IMG/VR virus record: IMGVR_UViG_3300045988_072726
Location: 1-5,497 of that record
Source of the DNA: a virus
Reading direction: 5' to 3' (one strand)
Length of the DNA stretch: 5,497 nucleotides
Shown: positions 1-5,497 of the stretch, piece after piece
Layout: each line of letters begins with the position of its first letter
How positions within the stretch are numbered: the stretch's first letter is position 1
Notes under the pieces: model-generated
What the model was told of the DNA's origin: nothing
The model's database searches: none
What the model saw: the letters and a program-made list of their open reading frames with translations, nothing else
Made by a program: the position numbers and the translations under genes

Positions 1-55
1 TCAAAGACATGATAAAAGCCGGAATAAATCCAATACTAGCAGCACAGTTAGGTGC
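1..55. repeat. 55-nt terminal redundancy, identical to 5443..5497. This is circular-genome closure, not a biological repeat.
   Basis: Direct base-by-base comparison: tcaaagacatgataaaagccggaataaatccaatactagcagcacagttaggtgc occurs at both ends of the window. A single ORF (VP2) reads through the junction in frame. Confidence 0.9.
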
Positions 56-290
56 AACCGGCCTATCAGGTGGAAGCATGGCAAGCGCAGGACTGGCAAG
101 CGGAGCAATGGCCAGCGGACACACCGCACAAATGCAACAGCAAACCGTACCGGATATCATCCGAAAAATCGGTTACGCCATAACAACGGCAAAAGAAGCA
201 GCGAAAGGATTGGAGGGATACACAAAAGAACTAGCTAACGAGAAACTGAACAAATACGCGAAACAGGCAATTGGAAACCTGAAAGGCTAA
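1..290 (+). CDS. VP2: VP2 minor capsid / DNA pilot protein, C-terminal part. It continues the ORF that begins at 5121 and crosses the circular junction; the unique CDS is 5121..5442 plus 1..290, about 203 aa.
   Basis: The reading frame is continuous with 5121..5497 because the 5442-nt unit length is divisible by 3 and position 9 corresponds to 5451 in the same frame. The region translates to a Gly/Ala/Ser-rich stretch (GATGLSGGSMASAGLASGAMASGHTAQMQQQ) followed by a C-terminus ending at TAA 288-290. It sits immediately downstream of VP1, as in gokushoviruses. Confidence 0.8.
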   Translation, partial: KDMIKAGINPILAAQLGATGLSGGSMASAGLASGAMASGHTAQMQQQTVPDIIRKIGYAITTAKEAAKGLEGYTKELANEKLNKYAKQAIGNLKG

Positions 291-296
291 ATTTTT

Positions 297-360
297 GTGT
301 CAGTCAGCCCCATTGTAACAAGGAGGCAATGGGGCTGACTGACCGGCCGCACGGCGGCCG
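297..360 (+). promoter_or_regulatory. Tandem perfect stem-loops in the VP2-VP4 intergenic region. The first has a 17-bp stem (299-315 paired with 327-343) and an 11-nt loop containing AAGGAGG. The second has a 7-bp GC stem (344-350 paired with 354-360). They are candidate terminators or ssDNA secondary-structure elements.
   Basis: gtcagtcagccccattg (299-315) is the exact reverse complement of caatggggctgactgac (327-343). cggccgc (344-350) is the reverse complement of gcggccg (354-360). The structure sits between the VP2 stop (290) and the VP4 SD (365-372). Confidence 0.6.
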
Positions 361-380
361 AGAGAAAGGAGGTGAAAACA

Positions 381-1412
381 TTGCCATGTTATCATCCTTT
401 GCGGCGCTGGTGGTGGGGTGAAACCGACCAAGACGGGAAGCAAATCAACGCCAAAATTACAGGCTGGGAAGTTGATACACTATTCGAAAGGCCGGTAGGC
501 TTTGGAAAACTTCGCGGGAACTGGTCAGCGGAAGAATGGAGCGAGGAAATACCATGCGGAAAATGCATCGGATGCAGACTAGAATACAGCCGACAATGGG
601 CAAACCGCTGTATGCTTGAAGCGCAAGAATGGCCGGAAAACTGGTTTATAACACTAACCTACGACGATGCACATTTACCATTCAAAGAACGCATAAACAC
701 CAAAACCGGGGAAATGACGGAGGAATTCACGCCGTCATTATATCCGCCAGACATAACAAAATTTATGAAAGACCTCCGGCGATACTGGGAATACCACTAC
801 GGAGAGCAAAACATAAGGTTTTACGCATGCGGGGAATACGGAAGCCACACAGCAAGACCACACTACCACATAATAGCATTTAACCTAAAACTACACGACC
901 TACAACCATGCGGACGAAGCAAAAGCGGGAAAATGCAATGGGACAGTCCAGCAATCCGAAAAATATGGGGTAGAGGACTAACAGCACTAGGACATGTAGA
1001 ATATGATTCATGTGCATATGTCGCAAGATATATGCTGAAAAAACAGAAAGGAGAGAACGCAAAAAAATACTACGCAGAAATGGGACTCGAACCAGAATTT
1101 ACAAGAAGCAGCCGCCGGCCGGGCATTGCAGCAGGATATTTTGAGCGCAACAAGGAAAAAATATATCATTATGATGAAATCGTGTTACCGGGGAATAAAG
1201 TGATAAGACCTCCAAAATACTACGATAAGTTATACGATATAGAAAATCCGAAAGAACTTGAAACAATAAAAAGTGCGCGCAAAGCGGCGGCAAAAGAAGC
1301 AGAAAAGATAGAGCTTGCAAAAACAACACTAACAAAGGGTGAATTACTAGCACTCAAAGAACGAACTGCAAAAGAAAAAATGAAGAAACTTCCTCGAGAG
1401 CTTAACGAATAA
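381..1412 (+). CDS. VP4: VP4 replication initiation protein, a rolling-circle HUH endonuclease that is the gokushovirus analog of phiX174 gene A. The probable start is TTG 381; the ORF track begins at GTG 372.
   Basis: Contains the conserved PCGKCIGCR cysteine motif. Rolling-circle motif 1 is FITLTYDD (~645-668), the HUH motif is PHYHIIAFN (~861-887), and the catalytic two-tyrosine motif is YVARYMLKK (~1017-1043; compare phiX A protein YVAKYVNKK). The SD AAAGGAGGTG (365-374) is 6-8 nt upstream of TTG 381, whereas GTG 372 lies inside the SD itself. Confidence 0.9.
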   Translation: MPCYHPLRRWWWGETDQDGKQINAKITGWEVDTLFERPVGFGKLRGNWSAEEWSEEIPCGKCIGCRLEYSRQWANRCMLEAQEWPENWFITLTYDDAHLPFKERINTKTGEMTEEFTPSLYPPDITKFMKDLRRYWEYHYGEQNIRFYACGEYGSHTARPHYHIIAFNLKLHDLQPCGRSKSGKMQWDSPAIRKIWGRGLTALGHVEYDSCAYVARYMLKKQKGENAKKYYAEMGLEPEFTRSSRRPGIAAGYFERNKEKIYHYDEIVLPGNKVIRPPKYYDKLYDIENPKELETIKSARKAAAKEAEKIELAKTTLTKGELLALKERTAKEKMKKLPRELNE

Positions 1413-1418
1413 CCAAAC

Positions 1419-1458
1419 AAAGGGGGCAAGCCCCCTTTACCCCCCTGCAAAAGGGGGG
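1419..1458 (+). terminator. Two adjacent GC-rich hairpins immediately after the VP4 stop. One pairs aaagggggc with gcccccttt; the other pairs cccccc with gggggg across a tgcaaaa loop, followed by atttatttat. Likely an intrinsic terminator, possibly also a structured ssDNA element.
   Basis: 1419-1427 is the reverse complement of 1430-1438. 1440-1445 (cccccc) pairs with 1453-1458 (gggggg) with a 7-nt loop. A T/A-rich tract follows at 1459-1468. The element begins 7 nt downstream of TAA 1410-1412. Confidence 0.55.
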
Positions 1459-1503
1459 ATTTATTTATCCGGAGAAACATTATGCAAGATGTAAAAAAAT
1501 TTA

Positions 1504-1556
1504 CTGACACAATTGGTGAAATGCATATAGAAATACAAACAGAAAAATAGTATAAT
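1504..1556 (+). promoter_or_regulatory. Candidate sigma70-type promoter elements upstream of the 62-aa ORF. There is a perfect TATAAT at 1551-1556. An alternative pair is cTGACA (1504-1509) with TATAGA (1526-1531) at a 16-nt spacing.
   Basis: Hexamer matches were read directly from the sequence in the AT-rich 1459-1581 intergenic segment, and SD GGAG 1570-1573 precedes ATG 1582. The -35 partner for the TATAAT (tagaaa, 1528-1533) is weak. Confidence 0.35.
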
Positions 1557-1581
1557 AAGACCATAGAAAGGAGATAAAAAC

Positions 1582-1770
1582 ATGAAAATACAAAACACCG
1601 CATTCAAAAACAAAACAAACAGAGACATGGCCTACAAAGAATTAAAAGAACACAAAATCCGCTGCGATACCTACAACATAAAAGATGGGTATTATTATGT
1701 AGCATGGTGTCCCTACAACAAAGAGCAATATCAAAAAGCAGTAAAAATAGTGGAAAGCCACTTGGACTAA
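1582..1770 (+). CDS. Hypothetical 62-aa protein, an orphan small ORF. It has no recognisable family, contains two Cys, and is Lys/Tyr-rich.
   Basis: ATG is preceded by AAAGGAG (1567-1573). The ORF is in the same orientation as all other genes and fills the VP4-to-VP5-region gap, with a candidate promoter upstream. Confidence 0.5.
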   Translation: MKIQNTAFKNKTNRDMAYKELKEHKIRCDTYNIKDGYYYVAWCPYNKEQYQKAVKIVESHLD

Positions 1771-1788
1771 ATGAAAGGGGGTGAAAAA

Positions 1789-1902
1789 ATGACGAACCTA
1801 AACAGCGTAAGAAAAGACAAAAAGGTATTCAAAGAAACCGCAGCAAAAACCAAAAGAATCAACATCGCGCCCAAAGTAATGCGCGGCGGCATCAGACTGT
1901 AA
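1789..1902 (+). CDS. Small, highly basic 37-aa peptide (MTNLNSVRKDKKVFKETAAKTKRINIAPKVMRGGIRL). Candidate ssDNA-binding/packaging protein, like gokushovirus ORF8 or phiX174 J.
   Basis: It is not in the supplied ORF track because it is below the size cutoff. ATG 1789 is preceded by GGGGGTG (1777-1783), and the ORF ends at TAA 1900-1902. 11 of its 37 residues are K or R. Its position, between the rep gene and the scaffold/capsid genes, matches small basic J-like ORFs in other Microviridae. Confidence 0.5.
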   Translation: MTNLNSVRKDKKVFKETAAKTKRINIAPKVMRGGIRL

Positions 1903-1927
1903 ACAAAACAAAAAAGGAGAAAAAACG

Positions 1928-2185
1928 ATGAAAACCAACATTTACGCATTCAAAGACACGAAAATAGGCTTTATGCAGCCATTCCTCCAGCAGAACGAAG
2001 CAGTTGCCATGCGAACCTTAAAAATGGCCGTGAACGATGAACACAGCCAGATTAGAAACATGGCAGAAGATATCCAGCTTTATCAGCTGGGAACCTTTAA
2101 CGATGATACCGGCGAAATCAAACCGGAAGTAAAATTTATAGCAAACGCCATCGACCACAAAGAGGAAAAGAACAATGGAAATTAA
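1928..2185 (+). CDS. Hypothetical 85-aa acidic protein. Positionally it is a VP5-like (phiX C analog) candidate.
   Basis: AGGAG (1915-1919) lies 8 nt upstream of ATG 1928. It is on the same strand as the other genes. No motif I can assign. Confidence 0.5.
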   Translation: MKTNIYAFKDTKIGFMQPFLQQNEAVAMRTLKMAVNDEHSQIRNMAEDIQLYQLGTFNDDTGEIKPEVKFIANAIDHKEEKNNGN

Positions 2186-2348
2186 CGAACTGGTAAACAT
2201 CATCGGGACAATCGGTTTTCCGTGTGTAATTGCGCTGCTGCTCCTGAAAAACAATCAGGAGCAAGCAACCATCATACGAGAAAACACCAAAGTAATTCAG
2301 GCATTAGCCGACCGAATCGACAATGTGCTATCAAAAGGAGAAGAATAA
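2175..2348 (+). CDS. Putative holin, 57 aa, with a single N-terminal transmembrane helix and a charged C-terminal tail. BhlA/UviB-like topology.
   Basis: Translation is MEINELVNIIGTIGFPCVIALLLLKNNQEQATIIRENTKVIQALADRIDNVLSKGEE. It has one ~19-residue hydrophobic segment followed by a polar, coiled-coil-like tail. ATG 2175 follows GAGGAAAAG (2162-2170), and its stop TAA 2346-2348 abuts the amidase ATG 2349. It is not in the ORF track (under 60 aa). Confidence 0.5.
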   Translation: MEINELVNIIGTIGFPCVIALLLLKNNQEQATIIRENTKVIQALADRIDNVLSKGEE

Positions 2349-2957
2349 ATGAAGCTGCACACACGAATAGCATACAAAAATGCATGCTACCAAGAAGGAC
2401 AAAAGATGAAACCCAAGGGCATCATGATACACAGCACAGGATGCAACAATCCAAACCTACGAAGATATGTCGGGCCGGATGATGGAATCCTCGGAAAAAA
2501 CATCTACAAAAACCATTGGAACAACGCCTATCCGGGCGGGAAAGCAATATGCTGCCACGCATTCATAGGCAAAGACAAAAACGGAGAAATCCGAACCTAC
2601 AAAATATTACCATGGGATATGGTGGGCTGGCATTGTGGAGGAAAAGCAAACAAAACGCACATCGGCATCGAAATCTGCGAAGACCATCCAAACACAGAAC
2701 ACTACCGGGAAACATTCCGGGAAGCCGTAGAAGTAGCGGCATACTTATGCAGAGTATACCAAATCCAGCCGAAAAACATAATCAGCCACAAAGAGGGCCA
2801 CGCAAAAGGCATCGCAAGCAACCACGGAGATCCGGAACATTGGTGGATGAACTACGGTGTAACAATGGATCACTTCAGAACGGAAGTAGCAAAAGAACTC
2901 GACAGACACAAAAGCTATAACATGATGATATACGATGAGAAAGGGGAAAACACATGA
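2349..2957 (+). CDS. N-acetylmuramoyl-L-alanine amidase, Amidase_2/PGRP family (T7 lysozyme-like endolysin), 202 aa.
   Basis: Motifs align with T7 lysozyme: IMIHSTGCNNP matches IFVHCSATKP (Zn-ligand His). AICCHAFIGKDKNGEI matches GYHFIIKRDGTVE. WHCGGKANKTHIGIEIC matches GSHAKGYNHNSIGVCLVG. ISHKEGHAKGIASNHGDPEHWW matches AHHEVAPKACPSFDLKRWW. AAGGAG (2333-2338) lies upstream, and the stop overlaps the VP3 start (ATGA 2954-2957). Confidence 0.8.
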   Translation: MKLHTRIAYKNACYQEGQKMKPKGIMIHSTGCNNPNLRRYVGPDDGILGKNIYKNHWNNAYPGGKAICCHAFIGKDKNGEIRTYKILPWDMVGWHCGGKANKTHIGIEICEDHPNTEHYRETFREAVEVAAYLCRVYQIQPKNIISHKEGHAKGIASNHGDPEHWWMNYGVTMDHFRTEVAKELDRHKSYNMMIYDEKGENT

Positions 2958-3451
2958 ACTTTTACAGCCGGATTAACCCGGCGCCGGTAATCGAAGCGCC
3001 GGCCGGAAGCAAAGAAGCAACAACCTATCAAACACAAATAGACGAGAACGGCCACAAAGTAACGGTACCGACCGGAAAAACCAACATCTACGACCGCATT
3101 CAAAGCAGCCTTGAGGAAACCAAAATTGAAAACATCATCAAACGATTTACGGAAGGTGATATCTCGGCATTCAGACAGGGCGAACCGCTGTATGCAGACA
3201 TGACCGAAGCACCACGAACACTGATGGAAGCGCAGAACATGATAATCCGCATTACAAACGAATTCAACGAACTGCCAGTAGAGATAAGAGCAAAATTTGA
3301 CCACAGCCCGGAAAAATATGTTGCACTGTACGGCGGCGAAGCATGGGCGAAGGCAGTGGGCTATGAAATCAAAAAAGCCGACACAGGCGAAATTCAGGGC
3401 GCTGGCGATACCAGCACAGAACCTATTCCGGAACAGGAGGAGAAAGCATGA
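2954..3451 (+). CDS. VP3: VP3 internal scaffolding protein (analog of phiX174 B), 165 aa.
   Basis: It lies immediately upstream of, and translationally coupled to, VP1 (ATGA 3448-3451). The composition is acidic (EPIPEQEEKA tail). The sequence features IYDRIQSSLEE...NELPVEIRAKFDHSPEKYV are typical of gokushovirus VP3. Confidence 0.75.
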   Translation: MNFYSRINPAPVIEAPAGSKEATTYQTQIDENGHKVTVPTGKTNIYDRIQSSLEETKIENIIKRFTEGDISAFRQGEPLYADMTEAPRTLMEAQNMIIRITNEFNELPVEIRAKFDHSPEKYVALYGGEAWAKAVGYEIKKADTGEIQGAGDTSTEPIPEQEEKA

Positions 3452-5106
3452 ACAGAAACACCGAAAGCCATTTTTCAGTAAATCCGATAAACCTTGATAT
3501 CCAGCGAAGTAAATTCGTTAGACCATCGACACACAAAACCACATTCAACGCAGGAAACCTAATTCCAATTTATGTTGATGAAGTACTCCCGGGCGATACA
3601 TTCAAAATGAACATGAGCAGTGTAATTCGTATGAGCACGCCAATCTATCCGGTAATGGATAACGCCAACATGGATGTATACTTCTTCTTCGTACCTAACC
3701 GCCTAGTGTGGGAGCACTGGAAAGAGTTTTTCGGAGAAAACAACACGACACACTGGGAGCAACCAGTCGAATACGAGGTACCACAAATCACAGCACCGGC
3801 GGGAGGATGGGCAAAAGGAACAATCGCCGACTATATGGGCATTCCGACGCTCATTAGTAATATCAGCGTGCAAGCACTGCCTTTCAGGGCATACTGTAAA
3901 ATATGGAATGACTGGTTCCGCGACCAGAACTTAAAAGACCCGGCTATGATAAGCCTTGACGAAACAACCACGGCCGGAGCCAACACCGGGGACTATGTAA
4001 CCAACGCAGAAAAGGGAGCGCTACCGCTTAAAGTAGCAAAATACCATGACTATTTCACAGCGGCATTACCGGAACCGCAAAAAGGGCCGGAAGTCACAAT
4101 CGGCGGCGTAGGCGGCTACATGCCTGTAATTACAAGGGATGAACTTGTAACCGACACAGAAAAAAACATGAAGTGGTACACACCGGGCAACACCACAGCA
4201 ACCAATTATGCACTTGGATATACGAGCCAAGTAAATGCAAGAGGAGCAAACGACATAAAAACGGCCGTATACGGAAGCGGATTCGTAAACCAAAATCCAA
4301 TAGCACCGGCTAACCTTTGGGCAGATATGACCGTAGGAACAGCTACCAGCATTAACGCACTGCGGCAGGCGTTTGCAATTCAACGATTGTACGAGAAGAA
4401 CGCACGAGGCGGAACAAGGTACATCGAAATCATAAAGGCGCATTTTGGGGTACAATCACCGGATGCAAGGCAGCAACGAAGTGAATACCTCGGCGGAACT
4501 CGCGTACCCATCAACATGGACCAAGTAGTACAGACATCCAACACGGCCGAGGGCAGCACACCGCAGGGTAACACGGCTGCATACTCTCTGACGGCATTCA
4601 ATGAAAGCATGTTCACAAAATCGTTTACCGAACACGGATACATTATCGGCCTTGCATGCATCAGAACGGAACACACATACCAGCAGGGCATAGAACGGTT
4701 TTGGAGCCGAAAAAAGATGCTGGACTATTATTTCCCGACATTGGCAAACCTCGGAGAACAGGCCATCCTTAACAAAGAAATCTATGCACAAGGGAGCACA
4801 ACAGACGATGAAGCATTCGGGTACCAAGAAGCATGGGCAGAATACCGATACAAGCCGAGCCGAGTATCGGGAGCAATGCGAAGCAACTACCAAACCACAC
4901 TGGACGCATGGCACTATGCAGACAAATACACAAGCCAGCCGATTTTATCAAGCGAATGGATTGATGAAACAAGCGCCAACATTGATAGAACACTGGCCGT
5001 ACAAAGCGCCACCGAAGACCAATTCATAGCAGACTTTTATTTTGCCTGCGAAGCAACAAGACCAATGCCGCTATACAGCATTCCGGGCCTGATTGACCAT
5101 CACTAA
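3448..5106 (+). CDS. VP1: VP1 major capsid protein (Microviridae F-protein fold), 552 aa.
   Basis: The N-terminus MNRNTESHFSVNPINLDIQRSKFVRPSTHKTTFNAGNLIPIYVDEVLPGDTFK carries the canonical gokushovirus VP1 signature (HFS...RS.F...HKTTF.AG.L.P...LPGD.F). It is the longest ORF. GGAGGAG (3436-3442) is upstream, and TAA falls at 5104-5106. Confidence 0.95.
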   Translation: MNRNTESHFSVNPINLDIQRSKFVRPSTHKTTFNAGNLIPIYVDEVLPGDTFKMNMSSVIRMSTPIYPVMDNANMDVYFFFVPNRLVWEHWKEFFGENNTTHWEQPVEYEVPQITAPAGGWAKGTIADYMGIPTLISNISVQALPFRAYCKIWNDWFRDQNLKDPAMISLDETTTAGANTGDYVTNAEKGALPLKVAKYHDYFTAALPEPQKGPEVTIGGVGGYMPVITRDELVTDTEKNMKWYTPGNTTATNYALGYTSQVNARGANDIKTAVYGSGFVNQNPIAPANLWADMTVGTATSINALRQAFAIQRLYEKNARGGTRYIEIIKAHFGVQSPDARQQRSEYLGGTRVPINMDQVVQTSNTAEGSTPQGNTAAYSLTAFNESMFTKSFTEHGYIIGLACIRTEHTYQQGIERFWSRKKMLDYYFPTLANLGEQAILNKEIYAQGSTTDDEAFGYQEAWAEYRYKPSRVSGAMRSNYQTTLDAWHYADKYTSQPILSSEWIDETSANIDRTLAVQSATEDQFIADFYFACEATRPMPLYSIPGLIDHH

Positions 5107-5120
5107 AGGAGGGGCAAACA

Positions 5121-5497
5121 ATGGCAGGAAGTAGGGGCCGAAACCTATTCGGACGAGACAAAAACCTCTATCAAGCCGGACAAAAAGCAGTAAATGCAGC
5201 AATAACCGGATTAGGGCTAGCACTCAACCCAATAGGAAACACCACAGCAACAGCCGAAGCAGCATTCAACAAAAGCCAAATGAGCGCAAAACAAGCAATG
5301 GCATTCGAAGCCAGCCAAGCAGCGCAACAAATGGCATTCCAGCGGGAAATGCTACAAAACCAAATGCGTTTCAACAGCGCAGAAGCTGAAACCAACAGAG
5401 CATGGCAAAGACAAATGAGACAAACAGCATACCAAGACACAGTCAAAGACATGATAAAAGCCGGAATAAATCCAATACTAGCAGCACAGTTAGGTGC
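5121..5497 (+). CDS. VP2: VP2 minor capsid / DNA pilot protein, N-terminal part. The ORF runs off the window end and continues at 1..290 through the circular junction.
   Basis: ATG 5121 is preceded by AAAGGAGGGG (5106-5115). No stop occurs before the window end. The translation MAGSRGRNLFGRDKNLYQAGQKAVNAAITGLGLALNPIGN...QMAFQREMLQNQMRFNSAEAETNRAWQRQMRQTAYQDTVKDMIKAGINPILAAQ carries the conserved gokushovirus VP2 motif (QxxFNxxEA...WQ..M..TAYQ....D...AG.NP.L). Confidence 0.85.
   Translation, partial: MAGSRGRNLFGRDKNLYQAGQKAVNAAITGLGLALNPIGNTTATAEAAFNKSQMSAKQAMAFEASQAAQQMAFQREMLQNQMRFNSAEAETNRAWQRQMRQTAYQDTVKDMIKAGINPILAAQLG

Follow-up and report, generated by a model that had tools for sequence, protein, structure and literature searches.

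Genome organisation

The window analysed here, a stretch of 5,497 nt (IMG/VR record IMGVR_UViG_3300045988_072726), is the complete closed genome of 5,442 nt of a mammalian-gut microvirus which belongs to the 'Gokushovirinae B' lineage. All genes share a strand and follow one another as VP2, VP4, orf62, VP8-like, VP5, holin-like gene, amidase, VP3 and VP1 (Table 1). Every gene read is preceded by a strong GGAGG-type ribosome-binding site, and the G+C content of the genome is 45.5%.

Table 1. Features of the window
Feature	Position	Strand	Remarks
Terminal overlap, left copy	1..55	.	assembler k-mer overlap, marks circular path
VP2, 3' part	1..290	+	stop 288-290
Hairpin, VP2-VP4 spacer	299..343	+	perfect 17-bp stem, 11-nt loop
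VP4 replication initiator, 343 aa	381..1412	+	REP_ORF2-G2P 4e-19; phrog_942 3e-116
Two G+C-rich hairpins past VP4 stop	1419..1458	+	T-run after the second, terminator-like
Strain-specific segment	1522..1771	+	about 208 nt without counterpart in eight aligned GenBank relatives
orf62, 62 aa, accessory gene	1582..1770	+	within 1522..1771
Highly basic 37-aa protein	1789..1902	+	11 K/R, 2 D/E; strong SD; phrog_10695 7e-9
VP5 (Phage_ORF5), 85 aa	1928..2185	+	PF20577 4e-22; phrog_1670 6.5e-28
Holin-like membrane protein, 57 aa	2175..2348	+	phrog_4898 'holin' 4.6e-5
N-acetylmuramoyl-L-alanine amidase (Amidase_2), 202 aa	2349..2957	+	PF01510 63 bits (cut-off 26)
VP3 internal scaffolding protein, 165 aa	2954..3451	+	Chlamy_scaf 7e-35; ATGA overlap with VP1
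VP1 major capsid protein, 552 aa	3448..5106	+	Phage_F 2e-176
VP2 (DNA pilot protein), 5' part	5121..5497	+	runs via the junction to 290
Terminal overlap, right copy	5443..5497	.	second copy of 1..55

VP2 is matched by pilot-protein PHROG families (E 6e-24 to 1e-13) and shares 90% of its amino acids with the annotated VP2 of KT264796 (Gokushovirus WZ-2015a). VP4 is 95% identical to the VP4 of the same genome; it starts with a TTG at 381, 6 nt downstream of AAGGAGGTG, a codon for which KT264796 has ATG. The hairpin in the spacer between these two genes, whose stems are identical in KT264796, is a candidate terminator or origin-associated element. The small basic protein is probably a VP8/J-like DNA-condensing virion protein, and the relatives likewise have a 37-aa gene call at this site. 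The best solved relative of VP1 is the gokushovirus capsid 8DES (3e-148; phiX174 F reaches 1.6e-5), and its variable surface loops (about 4143-4298) are an indel hot spot.

Relatives and circular closure

The window represents a new strain or species in a clade formed by Gokushovirus WZ-2015a and eight genomes from pig faeces. The closest relative, KT264796, originates from human faeces, has 5,417 nt and is 85% identical in nucleotides over 97% of the length. The pig-faeces 'Microviridae sp.' genomes (MG945319, MG945538, MG945410, MG945416, MG945385, MG945347, MG945389 and MG945746) measure 5,202-5,385 nt and are 77-84% identical to the window. For the clade as a whole the identities to the window are 74-85% in nucleotides and, in amino acids, 83-88% for VP1 and 81-96% for VP4. 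Gene content and order are shared, with the holin-like gene and the amidase again placed between VP5 and VP3; KT264796 carries 185 nt from a partial VP5 duplication. The clade members that were looked up in Table S1 of Kirchberger et al. 2022 are listed as Family3_GokushovirinaeB (PMC9239249). The GenBank records of the relatives either leave the amidase unannotated or call it 'hypothetical', and they do not annotate the holin-like ORF.

The preliminary description had regarded the window as one circular genome plus an overlap, with VP2 reading through the junction, and both points were borne out. Positions 1-55 and 5443-5497 are identical, which is the longest end overlap (exact match) and has a chance probability of about 4^-55; the circular unit has 5,442 nt once the overlap is removed. 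On the circularised sequence a single ORF runs from 5121 over 5442|1 to 290 and encodes VP2 with 203 aa. An ENA scaffold of 5,497 nt (L014) matches the circularised window exactly over its whole length from 4973 on, and has its own 55-nt overlap elsewhere on the same circle. A MEGAHIT contig (L015) of 5,463 nt (5,442 + 21) is broken at 5215 and contains one mismatch. A 300-mer over the window junction was found in L014 and L015 alike, and VP2 or its junction region is intact in both (203 aa for the VP2 of L014). The two linearisations repeat different 55-mers, which points to a k-mer overlap left by the assembler (k = 55) and not to a biological terminal repeat.

The predicted lysis cassette and its insertion site

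The 57-aa holin-like gene and the gene of the 202-aa Amidase_2 endolysin form a predicted lysis cassette of 772 nt between VP5 and VP3. In cassette-free outgroups (VP1 63-68% identical) VP5 overlaps VP3 directly by ATGA, so the earlier view that the extra DNA came by insertion holds. Alignment to the relatives places the cassette at VP5/VP3 and a further insert of about 208 nt with orf62 at 1522..1771. The nine GenBank relatives listed and two IMG/VR genomes have the cassette at the same site. It was very probably gained by the ancestor of this narrow clade, precisely where VP5 and VP3 had overlapped, and is now coupled in translation to both neighbours and ameliorated in composition. The holin-like ORF overlaps the end of VP5 by 11 nt and its stop directly abuts the ATG of the amidase, whose own stop overlaps the VP3 start (ATGA).

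The hydropathy profile of the holin-like protein shows a single hydrophobic helix near the N-terminus (about residues 6-24) and a charged helix at the C-terminus. Its gene is 70-84% identical in amino acids to a gene of phi29-like gut podoviruses of about 15 kb, which matches the same 'holin' family (phrog_4898) with 1.4e-8. The 44 homologue clusters come from contigs of either about 5 kb or shorter, or about 14-15 kb; the latter encode phi29-type DNA polymerase B, Gp16 ATPase, Phi29_MCP and connector. The homology between microviruses and podoviruses ends at the borders of this ORF. Differences lie mostly in third codon positions and synonymous changes dominate, a pattern which indicates purifying selection.

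The amidase matches the endolysin family phrog_15001 with 2e-51 and comprises the catalytic domain only, without signal peptide and wall-binding domain. It aligns with PlyL and XlyA, and H28, E108 and H147 correspond to H29, E90 and H129 of PlyL, so that two Zn ligands and the catalytic Glu are conserved; a third zinc ligand could not be placed in this alignment. Identity is 73-89% among the microvirus copies and falls to at most 60% in longer proteins. More than 2,400 longer homologues carry SPOR, LysM or PG-binding modules, and the source names of the homologues listed are mostly Firmicutes, with Oscillospiraceae and Evtepia phages as best phage matches. By these sequence criteria the enzyme corresponds to the catalytic part of a modular endolysin of the Firmicutes type.

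The orf62 segment

The segment with orf62 is a second insertion relative to the small cultured gokushoviruses. In a MAFFT alignment all eight relatives show gaps of 35, 33 and 140 nt there, and none has the roughly 208 extra nt of the window. Its G+C content is 32%, and the highest-ranking promoter-like site in the window (1528-1556) falls within it, in a scan whose number of sites was not above chance. A word-index search of 5.8 billion proteins retrieved orf62 itself only. The full HMMER scan found four relatives of 62-63 aa with 39-61% identity, the closest of which (61%) is encoded beside the large terminase on a contig of a tailed phage. A beta-alpha-beta-beta-alpha fold is predicted with confidence (AF2 pLDDT 91.5), for which the structure matches were non-specific. 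As far as sequence comparison can tell, the relatives of the holin-like gene, the amidase and orf62 among tailed dsDNA phages are thus distinct from one another, and such separate relatives for each of the three extra genes are what is new here.

Genome size and integrity of the assembly

Taken together, the window is very probably best explained as a closed Gokushovirinae B genome of ordinary size with two insertions and lysis genes related to those of tailed phages. It is extremely improbable that the circle is instead an artefact, a chimera or false closure by which the cassette or orf62 was joined from a tailed phage. The same sequence was obtained from three assemblies (two ENA, by different assemblers, and one Logan contig), in which orf62, its flanks and the junction are reproduced with one mismatch in 5,463 nt. 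A 55-nt repeat alone is a mere de Bruijn-graph signature, no other microvirus was found to carry orf62, which is also low in G+C, and a chimeric head-to-tail contig of the same clade is present in a public assembly; the shared position of the cassette in the relatives, however, speaks against a join. So does composition, as the accessory genes have the extreme A>T skew of the genome (AT skew 0.47 for the microvirus copy of the amidase), which is lacking in the lysis regions of tailed phages where the homologues lie (about 0.06).

A second alternative, that of an unusually large gokushovirus whose acquired DNA strains what a T=1 capsid can package, is very unlikely. The window does exceed the few cultured gokushoviruses, which have about 4.4-4.9 kb (Chp2, phiMH2K, SpV4, EC6098). 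It also stands at the upper end of its own cassette-bearing clade (GenBank relatives 5,202-5,417 nt), where the longest contig of the 5-kb class with the holin-like gene has 5,488 nt. VP1 is not longer than in solved gokushovirus capsids (566 and 553 aa), and therefore the extra DNA comes without obvious capsid enlargement. But Microviridae of 4.4-6.1 kb were already known in 2012 (Roux et al. 2012, PMC3394797), and 4,077 microvirus genomes have a median of 5,078 nt and a range of 3.5-8.3 kb, Gokushovirinae B being described as 'larger' (Kirchberger et al. 2022, PMC9239249). In our sample of Gokushovirinae B (n=136) the median is 5,055 nt and the maximum 6,330 nt, and 18% have at least 5,442 nt, so that the genome does not lie beyond the usual range as had been proposed. 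A size of 5,442 nt is ordinary for the lineage, and genome length is therefore uninformative on a T=1 packaging limit. The suggestion that such limits make the size notable is also contradicted by phiX174 with 5.4 kb inside a T=1 shell and Ebor with 6.6 kb inside an enlarged one (PMC11980548). That the excess roughly equals the lysis cassette plus small ORFs is correct as arithmetic (5,442 - 980 = 4,462 nt). As a cause of the large size of the lineage it fails, because relatives without the cassette also have 5,232-5,376 nt. What deserves attention is rather that the cell-bursting genes appear related to those of tailed phages of Gram-positive bacteria.

Comparison with known lysis systems

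Late in infection the single-pass holin would permeabilise the membrane, upon which the signal-less zinc amidase could reach the wall and cut the MurNAc-L-Ala bond. The outcome would be lysis of a thick-walled host, probably gut Clostridia (Oscillospiraceae-like). Protein E of phiX174 also brings about the release of a T=1 ssDNA phage, but it is an overprinted inhibitor of wall synthesis and not accompanied by a muralytic enzyme. Nothing similar to an E-like gene was found in the window, for which, unlike phiX174, enzymatic lysis is predicted.

Wall-degrading enzymes gained from bacteria or tailed phages are known from other microviruses. Gokushoviruses and alpaviruses with a horizontally acquired M15_3 peptidase were described by Roux et al. 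2012 (PMC3394797), and lysis-associated 'peptidase/amidase' accessory genes occur in the microviral Families 2, 7 and 14 (Kirchberger et al. 2022, PMC9239249). The M15 gene lies between VP1 and VP4 in the former systems and the Amidase_2 gene of the window at VP5/VP3. Unlike the M15_3 enzymes, that of the window is paired with a recognisable holin-like gene, which has separate tailed-phage relatives of its own. In Ebor ('Tainavirinae', Rhodobacter capsulatus) the extra DNA likewise encodes a peptidoglycan hydrolase, which was experimentally shown to degrade the host wall (PMC11980548). However, Ebor has a Gram-negative host, and its capsid protein is extended at the C-terminus, which enlarges the shell, whereas VP1 of the window has the usual gokushovirus length; a holin is not mentioned in the text of that paper.

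The cassettes of Firmicutes tailed phages (Oscillospiraceae 'Heliusvirales', PlyL/XlyA-type) resemble the window in having a small membrane-protein gene just upstream of a cytoplasmic Amidase_2, and the catalytic His, Glu and His are common to both. The window enzyme consists of the catalytic domain only (202 aa), in contrast to the tailed-phage and bacterial versions, which have 230-416 aa and include modules of the SPOR, LysM, PG-binding or SH3 type. A 139-aa holin next to an Oscillospiraceae phage endolysin did not match the holin-like gene in blastn or tblastx.

Function of the cassette and probable host

A holin function of the 57-aa protein is suggested by one PHROG family with modest E-values and by topology, and a role of the cassette in lysis rather than in entry appears plausible. 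It is rather unlikely that the two genes are no holin-endolysin pair, the amidase being a virion-associated or early entry enzyme and the 57-aa protein unrelated to it (YvrJ-like, immunity, exclusion). In the podoviruses the 57-aa gene has the packaging ATPase on one side and the scaffold/capsid genes on the other, apart from the GH25 lysin, and the ORF starts with ATA in seven relatives and with ATG in the window. The only offer from Pfam is weak, sub-threshold matches to YvrJ, while the PHROG 'holin' family is the sole consistent match and the topology is typical of small holins. The verified hydrolase of Ebor was seen in trace amounts in virions (PMC11980548). Against this alternative stands the fact that the 57-aa gene abuts a signal-less muralytic enzyme which needs a route through the membrane, and that both are kept as a unit across the clade.

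A Gram-positive host is likely, with gut Clostridia (Oscillospiraceae-like) as probable candidates, because related prophages sit in Clostridia chromosomes. The known hosts of cultured microviruses are Gram-negative or wall-less (Spiroplasma, SpV4), which would fit a Gram-negative gut bacterium, with Firmicutes-like genes saying nothing on the host; this we consider improbable. The CRISPR-based hosts of Gokushovirinae B do include Parasutterella, Bacteroides and Desulfovibrio, but many members are assigned to Faecalibacterium, Flavonifractor or Ruminococcus, even if most Gram-positive assignments, as Kirchberger et al. caution, derive from binned sequences (PMC9239249). Their table gives no host for the clade members, and a scan of 185,579 species genomes for close relatives of VP1 gave no match and thus no host for the clade. 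One prophage with a 45% identical VP1 lies in a contig of Phascolarctobacterium, a diderm Firmicute. The closest chromosomally integrated relatives, however, are found in Clostridia/Oscillospiraceae MAG contigs of 14-153 kb, and the three independently acquired genes have their nearest relatives in Firmicutes phages or tailed-phage contigs. For the wall enzymes described earlier from microviruses the nearest homologues likewise point to Clostridiales, and Gram-positive hosts were suggested on that ground (PMC3394797, PMC9239249). Cultured relatives of the phi29-like podoviruses mostly infect Gram-positives (Hungatella, Clostridium, Bacillus, Enterococcus, Bifidobacterium). Microvirus prophages with 56-57% identical VP1, which lack the lysis cassette, are flanked by ordinary chromosomal genes in contigs of 38 kb and 153 kb, labelled as Clostridia in the MAG records.

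Circular closure and genome size

The terminal 55 bases of the window (5,497 nt) are identical at both ends and no longer terminal match exists, so the unit measures 5,442 nt. In the circularised window an ORF of 203 aa crosses the junction, which matches DNA-pilot PHROGs of microviruses (E-values down to 6e-24) and shares 90% identity with the VP2 annotated in Gokushovirus WZ-2015a. The same circle was recovered in three public assemblies with differing break points. An ENA scaffold (L014) of 5,497 nt follows the circularised window exactly from position 4973 onwards, and its own 55-nt overlap corresponds to positions 4973-5027 of the unit, that of the window to positions 1-55. A MEGAHIT contig (L015, 5,463 nt) comprises 5,442 + 21 nt with one mismatch, an overlap of 21 nt and a break at position 5215. 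A 300-mer across the junction of the window is present in both. As the same sequence recurs in three independent public contigs and two of them span the junction of the window, the circle is real. The preliminary description of a complete circular genome plus an overlap, which relied on the exact 55-nt ends and on VP2 reading through the junction, is thus confirmed. The position of the repeat shifts with the cut site of the circle; the 55-nt repeat is therefore an assembler k-mer overlap (k = 55) and not a biological terminal repeat.

One further contig (L023, GCA_019971095.1, JAHXDW010001580.1, 11,339 nt) consists of two different variants of the clade joined head-to-tail, with the amidase gene. 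It is easily mistaken for a prophage or an oversized microvirus. Due to the absence of host DNA and the head-to-tail arrangement of two variants it was rejected as a prophage and is regarded as an assembly chimera.

The genome had also been described as larger than the usual size range, which is not borne out. In the curated set of Kirchberger et al. 2022 (PMC9239249), 4,077 microvirus genomes have a median of 5,078 nt and range from 3.5 to 8.3 kb, and a single faecal survey reported microviruses of 4,265-7,225 nt. The 136 consecutive Gokushovirinae B entries taken from Table S1 of Kirchberger et al. 2022 (PMC9239249) have a median length of 5,055 nt and an interquartile range of 4,908-5,383 nt, and the longest measures 6,330 nt; 25 entries (18%) reach 5,442 nt or more. 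With regard to T=1 shells, that of phiX174 holds 5.4 kb and that of Ebor, which is enlarged, 6.6 kb (PMC11980548). It is true that the genome is larger than those of cultured gokushoviruses, but this reflects the small number of isolates and no limit. The observation of an unusually large complete genome was correct as such, its explanation is however an ordinary one: the size is normal for the clade, and since the genome is typical of Gokushovirinae B the size claim loses its importance.

Gene content and classification

All credible genes are located on the plus strand, and each coding-strand ORF of at least 37 aa outside overlaps could be accounted for. The core set of VP2, VP4, VP3 and VP5 is completely present (see table). 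Compared with solved structures, VP1 resembles the gokushovirus capsid 8DES (3e-148) much more than phiX174 F (1.6e-5). The remaining ORFs gave no match to external scaffold (D) or spike (G) families in Pfam and PHROGs. VP4 starts with TTG, its counterpart in KT264796 with ATG. The basic protein of 37 aa is probably a VP8/J-like DNA-binding or DNA-condensing protein. In most related records its gene is without annotation.

Features of the window, indel hot spots of the clade and prophage-linked recombinases. Positions refer to the sequence in the second column.
Feature	Sequence	Position	Strand	Remarks
VP1	window		+	Phage_F PF02305, 2e-176
VP2 pilot	window	5121 through the junction to 290	+	PHROGs
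VP3 internal scaffold	window		+	Chlamy_scaf, 7e-35
VP4 replication initiator	window	start TTG 381	+	REP_ORF2-G2P; phrog_942, 3e-116
VP5	window		+	Phage_ORF5, 4e-22
VP8/J-like candidate, 37 aa	window	1789-1902	+	11 Lys/Arg, strong ribosome-binding site, kept in relatives
orf62, 62 aa	window	1582-1770	+	
Holin-like gene, 57 aa	window	2175-2348	+	'holin' PHROG phrog_4898, 4.6e-5
Amidase, 202 aa	window	2349-2957	+	Amidase_2 PF01510; endolysin PHROG, 2e-51
Hairpin	window	299-343		perfect, 17 bp, VP2-VP4 interval; stems the same in KT264796
Two hairpins	window	1419-1458		G+C-rich, 3' of the VP4 stop; T-run after the second
Holin-like ORF, ATA start	L001 (KT264796)	4145		
Holin-like ORF, ATA start	L007 (MG945410)	1580		
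Holin-like ORF, ATA start	L002, L006, L008, L009, L010			equivalent positions
Indel hot spot, VP4-VP5 spacer				
Indel hot spot, holin/amidase junction	MG945410	1754-1933		176-nt insert, 59-aa lysine-rich ORF; also in MG945347 (pig faeces)
Indel hot spot, VP5	KT264796	3713-4155		partial tandem duplication, extra 185 nt
Indel hot spot, VP1 surface loops				
Indel hot spot, VP2 N-terminus				
Tyrosine recombinase	L058	9717-10760		
Tyrosine recombinase	L059	12485-13510		
Tyrosine recombinase	L061	5521-6441	-	
Tyrosine recombinase	L064	2523-3464	-	

The nearest GenBank record, KT264796 (Gokushovirus WZ-2015a), comes from human faeces, is 5,417 nt long and matches at 85% identity across 97% of the length; eight genomes from pig faeces (5,202-5,385 nt) come next. 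The nearest relatives, which are 74-85% identical at the nucleotide level (KT264796, MG9453xx, MG945410, MG945538), are listed as Family3_GokushovirinaeB, and by this proxy the window would be assigned to the same group. Kirchberger et al. 2022 (PMC9239249) call Gokushovirinae B (Family 3) 'larger and more uniform' and associate it almost exclusively with mammals. The genome is a new addition to an already known clade.

The coding (packaged) strand of the whole window contains 38% A, 16% T and 61% purines, which corresponds to an AT skew of 0.41. The skew is 0.29-0.49 in all fetched Gokushovirinae B relatives (L001-L011) and about 0.03-0.06 in tailed-phage contigs with homologous genes. The hairpins at both sites may be terminators or structures associated with an origin; no RNA families were found in Rfam, and a promoter scan showed no excess of sites over shuffled sequence.

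Insertions in the clade

The excess length had been attributed to the lysis cassette (holin-like gene and amidase) plus extra small ORFs, and for this genome the sum is correct. The cassette contributes 772 nt (2186-2957) and a second part about 208 nt, and 4,462 nt are left without both. In an alignment of nine clade genomes (the window and eight GenBank relatives) the second part is exclusive to the window and appears as gaps of 35 + 33 + 140 nt within 1522-1771. Nevertheless the cassette was rejected as the cause of the large size, since relatives without it are equally large (5,232-5,376 nt) and contain other small accessory ORFs, some of which resemble ribbon-helix-helix repressors.

Acquisition by insertion, which had also been proposed, is supported by synteny. 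MG945858 and OM869663 (VP1 63-68% identical) do not have the cassette, and their VP5 and VP3 genes share an ATGA. The first 11 nt of the holin-like ORF in the window are also the last 11 nt of VP5, the TAA of this ORF is immediately followed by the ATG of the amidase, and the stop codon of the amidase lies in an ATGA with which VP3 begins. The cassette is found at the identical site in all eight aligned relatives as well as in two IMG/VR genomes, the divergence of the amidase (73-87%) parallels that of VP1 (83-88%), and the amidase gene shares the extreme excess of A over T of the genome, with an AT skew of 0.47 compared to about 0.06 in tailed-phage lysis regions with homologues. The shared site, the coupling of the genes, the divergence tracking VP1 and the excess of A over T indicate that the common ancestor of the narrow clade already gained the cassette, which is thus no recent acquisition. 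Genome length within the clade varies by short insertions and deletions at a handful of hot spots (see table). The 3' end of the first VP5 copy in KT264796 is divergent and apparently disrupted, and this duplication is either genuine or an assembly artefact of the record.

The holin-like gene

The 57-aa protein has a charged tail and one hydrophobic helix, at about residues 6-24. The 'holin' family phrog_4898 matches it at 4.6e-5 and its podovirus homologue at 1.4e-8; Pfam gave only sub-threshold matches to YvrJ, and a search of NCBIfam nothing meaningful. In a collection of 5.8 billion proteins 44 clusters of homologues were identified, each of 51-57 aa. Most of them are on contigs of up to about 5 kb; a few, 70-84% identical at the amino acid level, are encoded by contigs of 14-15 kb together with a phi29-type SSB, a protein-primed DNA polymerase B, a Gp16 ATPase, Phi29_MCP, tail and connector proteins. 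Three of these contigs (L017, L018, L020) are very small phi29-like podoviruses from human gut samples, which contain a GH25 lysin and are apparently near-complete. Their only close match in the phage collection is MT836502, an unannotated 10-kb fragment (83% nt). The nearest cultured relatives are phages of Hungatella and Clostridium symbiosum (40% capsid identity), then of Bacillus, and nearly all named hosts in the podovirus match list are Gram-positive.

The nucleotide homology between microvirus and podovirus (71-74%) ends exactly at the ORF borders. The differences are mainly at the third codon position (e.g. 5/2/25), which shows purifying selection on the ORF in both types of virus. Base composition gave no signal for the direction of transfer, as the podovirus copies are not outliers within their own genomes. 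The ORF of seven GenBank relatives has an ATA start in place of ATG, 7 nt downstream of AAGGAGGTG, and the remaining frame is conserved. This probably accounts for the fact that the gene was never annotated, and suggests non-canonical initiation, perhaps weak on purpose.

The amidase

The match to PF01510 scores 63.2 bits (cut-off 26) and covers profile positions 2-130 of 131. H28, E108 and H147 align with H29, E90 and H129 of PlyL, two zinc ligands and the catalytic Glu of that enzyme, a numbering with which an alanine in the corresponding column of chain 2AR3 is consistent; a candidate for the third ligand (possibly H159 or D161) is outside the alignment. The microvirus copies are 73-89% identical, and more than 2,400 longer proteins reach at most 60%. 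Among the matches listed, most longer amidases carry SPOR, LysM, PG-binding or SH3 modules, and the few with a named source are mostly from Firmicutes, e.g. Clostridium sporogenes and Proteiniclasticum. The top phage matches (55-58%) are endolysins from tailed phages of Oscillospiraceae and Evtepia; the two that were fetched measure 318 and 416 aa. The catalytic domain is the sole part retained in the microvirus amidase.

The accessory gene orf62

The strain-specific segment 1522-1771 has a G+C content of 32% and contains a promoter-like site, a strong SD and orf62. A word-index search with orf62 returned only itself, and four relatives of 62-63 aa (39-61% identical) emerged when 1.84 billion representatives were scanned in full with HMMER. 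The gene of the closest one (61%) directly follows that of the large terminase on L056, a tailed-phage contig of 9 kb. No match was found in Pfam, PHROGs or NCBIfam. A single-sequence AlphaFold model is confident (pLDDT 91.5) and has the order beta-alpha-beta-beta-alpha, for which fold searches gave only generic ferredoxin-like matches (E >= 0.008). A likeness to SPOR or PlyG wall-binding domains was set aside as not significant at the same E-values, and a BLASTP comparison with a SPOR-domain amidase gave no match.

Proposed lysis mechanism

The best-supported reading of the cassette is a canonical two-component lysis system. The domains, two zinc ligands with the catalytic Glu, the topology, the adjacency of the genes and their conservation are established; holin activity and timing we infer. 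The single-pass 57-aa protein would permeabilise the membrane, and the signal-less zinc amidase would afterwards cleave the MurNAc-L-Ala bond. It is consistent with such a system that the holin-like gene adjoins that of an amidase without export signal, with a hydrophilic N-terminus, and that the pair is kept in every clade member examined. The main rival is that the amidase acts in entry or that the 57-aa protein is no holin; the family assignment of the latter is weak, and the podovirus copy of its gene lies in a neighbourhood not related to lysis.

Acquired wall hydrolases as such are already known in microviruses, as M15 peptidases (Roux 2012, PMC3394797), as peptidase or amidase genes in Families 2, 7, 14 and 'occasionally' elsewhere (Kirchberger 2022, PMC9239249), and in Ebor, where the hydrolase was verified by experiment (PMC11980548). 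No description of a holin-amidase pair in a microvirus, or of a gene common with phi29-like phages, was found in literature that covered few subscription journals, which is for that reason no proof of novelty. The cassette, which public records leave unannotated, offers a clear testable case on gokushovirus lysis.

Probable host and possible gene flow

Neither a scan of 185,579 species genomes for close relatives of VP1 nor the table of Kirchberger et al. 2022 revealed a host of the clade itself. The affinities of the accessory genes point to Gram-positive Clostridia, and strong GGAGG-type ribosome-binding sites precede every gene read. For many Gokushovirinae B entries in the published table, CRISPR-based host assignments name Faecalibacterium, Flavonifractor or Ruminococcus (Kirchberger et al. 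2022, PMC9239249). Prophages were found only by an alignment-based VP1 scan, at 42-60% identity. Complete microvirus gene sets with 56-57% identical VP1 are integrated in Clostridia MAG contigs of 38 kb and 153 kb, flanked by ordinary chromosomal genes (lexA-miaA-mutL-mutS; on the other contig murD-like, PBP and mltG-like genes). Since these prophages are without the cassette and their taxon labels were taken from the MAG records, a Gram-positive Clostridia host is only likely for the clade of the window. Reports of microvirus prophages in Firmicutes go back no further than 2022 (PMC9239249). Infection of Gram-positive bacteria by microviruses is barely documented, and the prophages related to this clade sit in Clostridia chromosomes.

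Due to their separate homologies the holin-like gene, the amidase and orf62 point to three different tailed-phage relatives. We tentatively propose, with slightly more doubt than belief, that the clade infects Gram-positive gut Clostridia and lyses them with a complete holin-endolysin system, that its holin (up to 84% identical at the amino acid level in phi29-like podoviruses) and its trimmed Firmicutes amidase came from two tailed-phage lineages and that orf62 is a third capture, made by this strain. If so, there would be repeated and recent gene flow from dsDNA tailed phages to ssDNA microviruses, and the shared holin would provide a handle on host identity. Gene uptake by microviruses is regarded as highly restricted and the group as genetically isolated (Kirchberger et al. 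2022, PMC9239249); a 5-kb ssDNA phage able to acquire at least three tailed-phage-related genes tempers this view of near closure to transfer. What merits follow-up is the mosaic lysis cassette together with the Gram-positive host that it implies.

Each of the Clostridia-MAG prophages has a tyrosine recombinase about 0.2-1.3 kb from the microvirus genes (see table), and the neighbouring host genes differ. The recombinases may be phage-borne integrases, which to our knowledge would be unusual in microviruses, or xer genes beside a dif-like attachment site. Three of them are 45-50% identical to one another.
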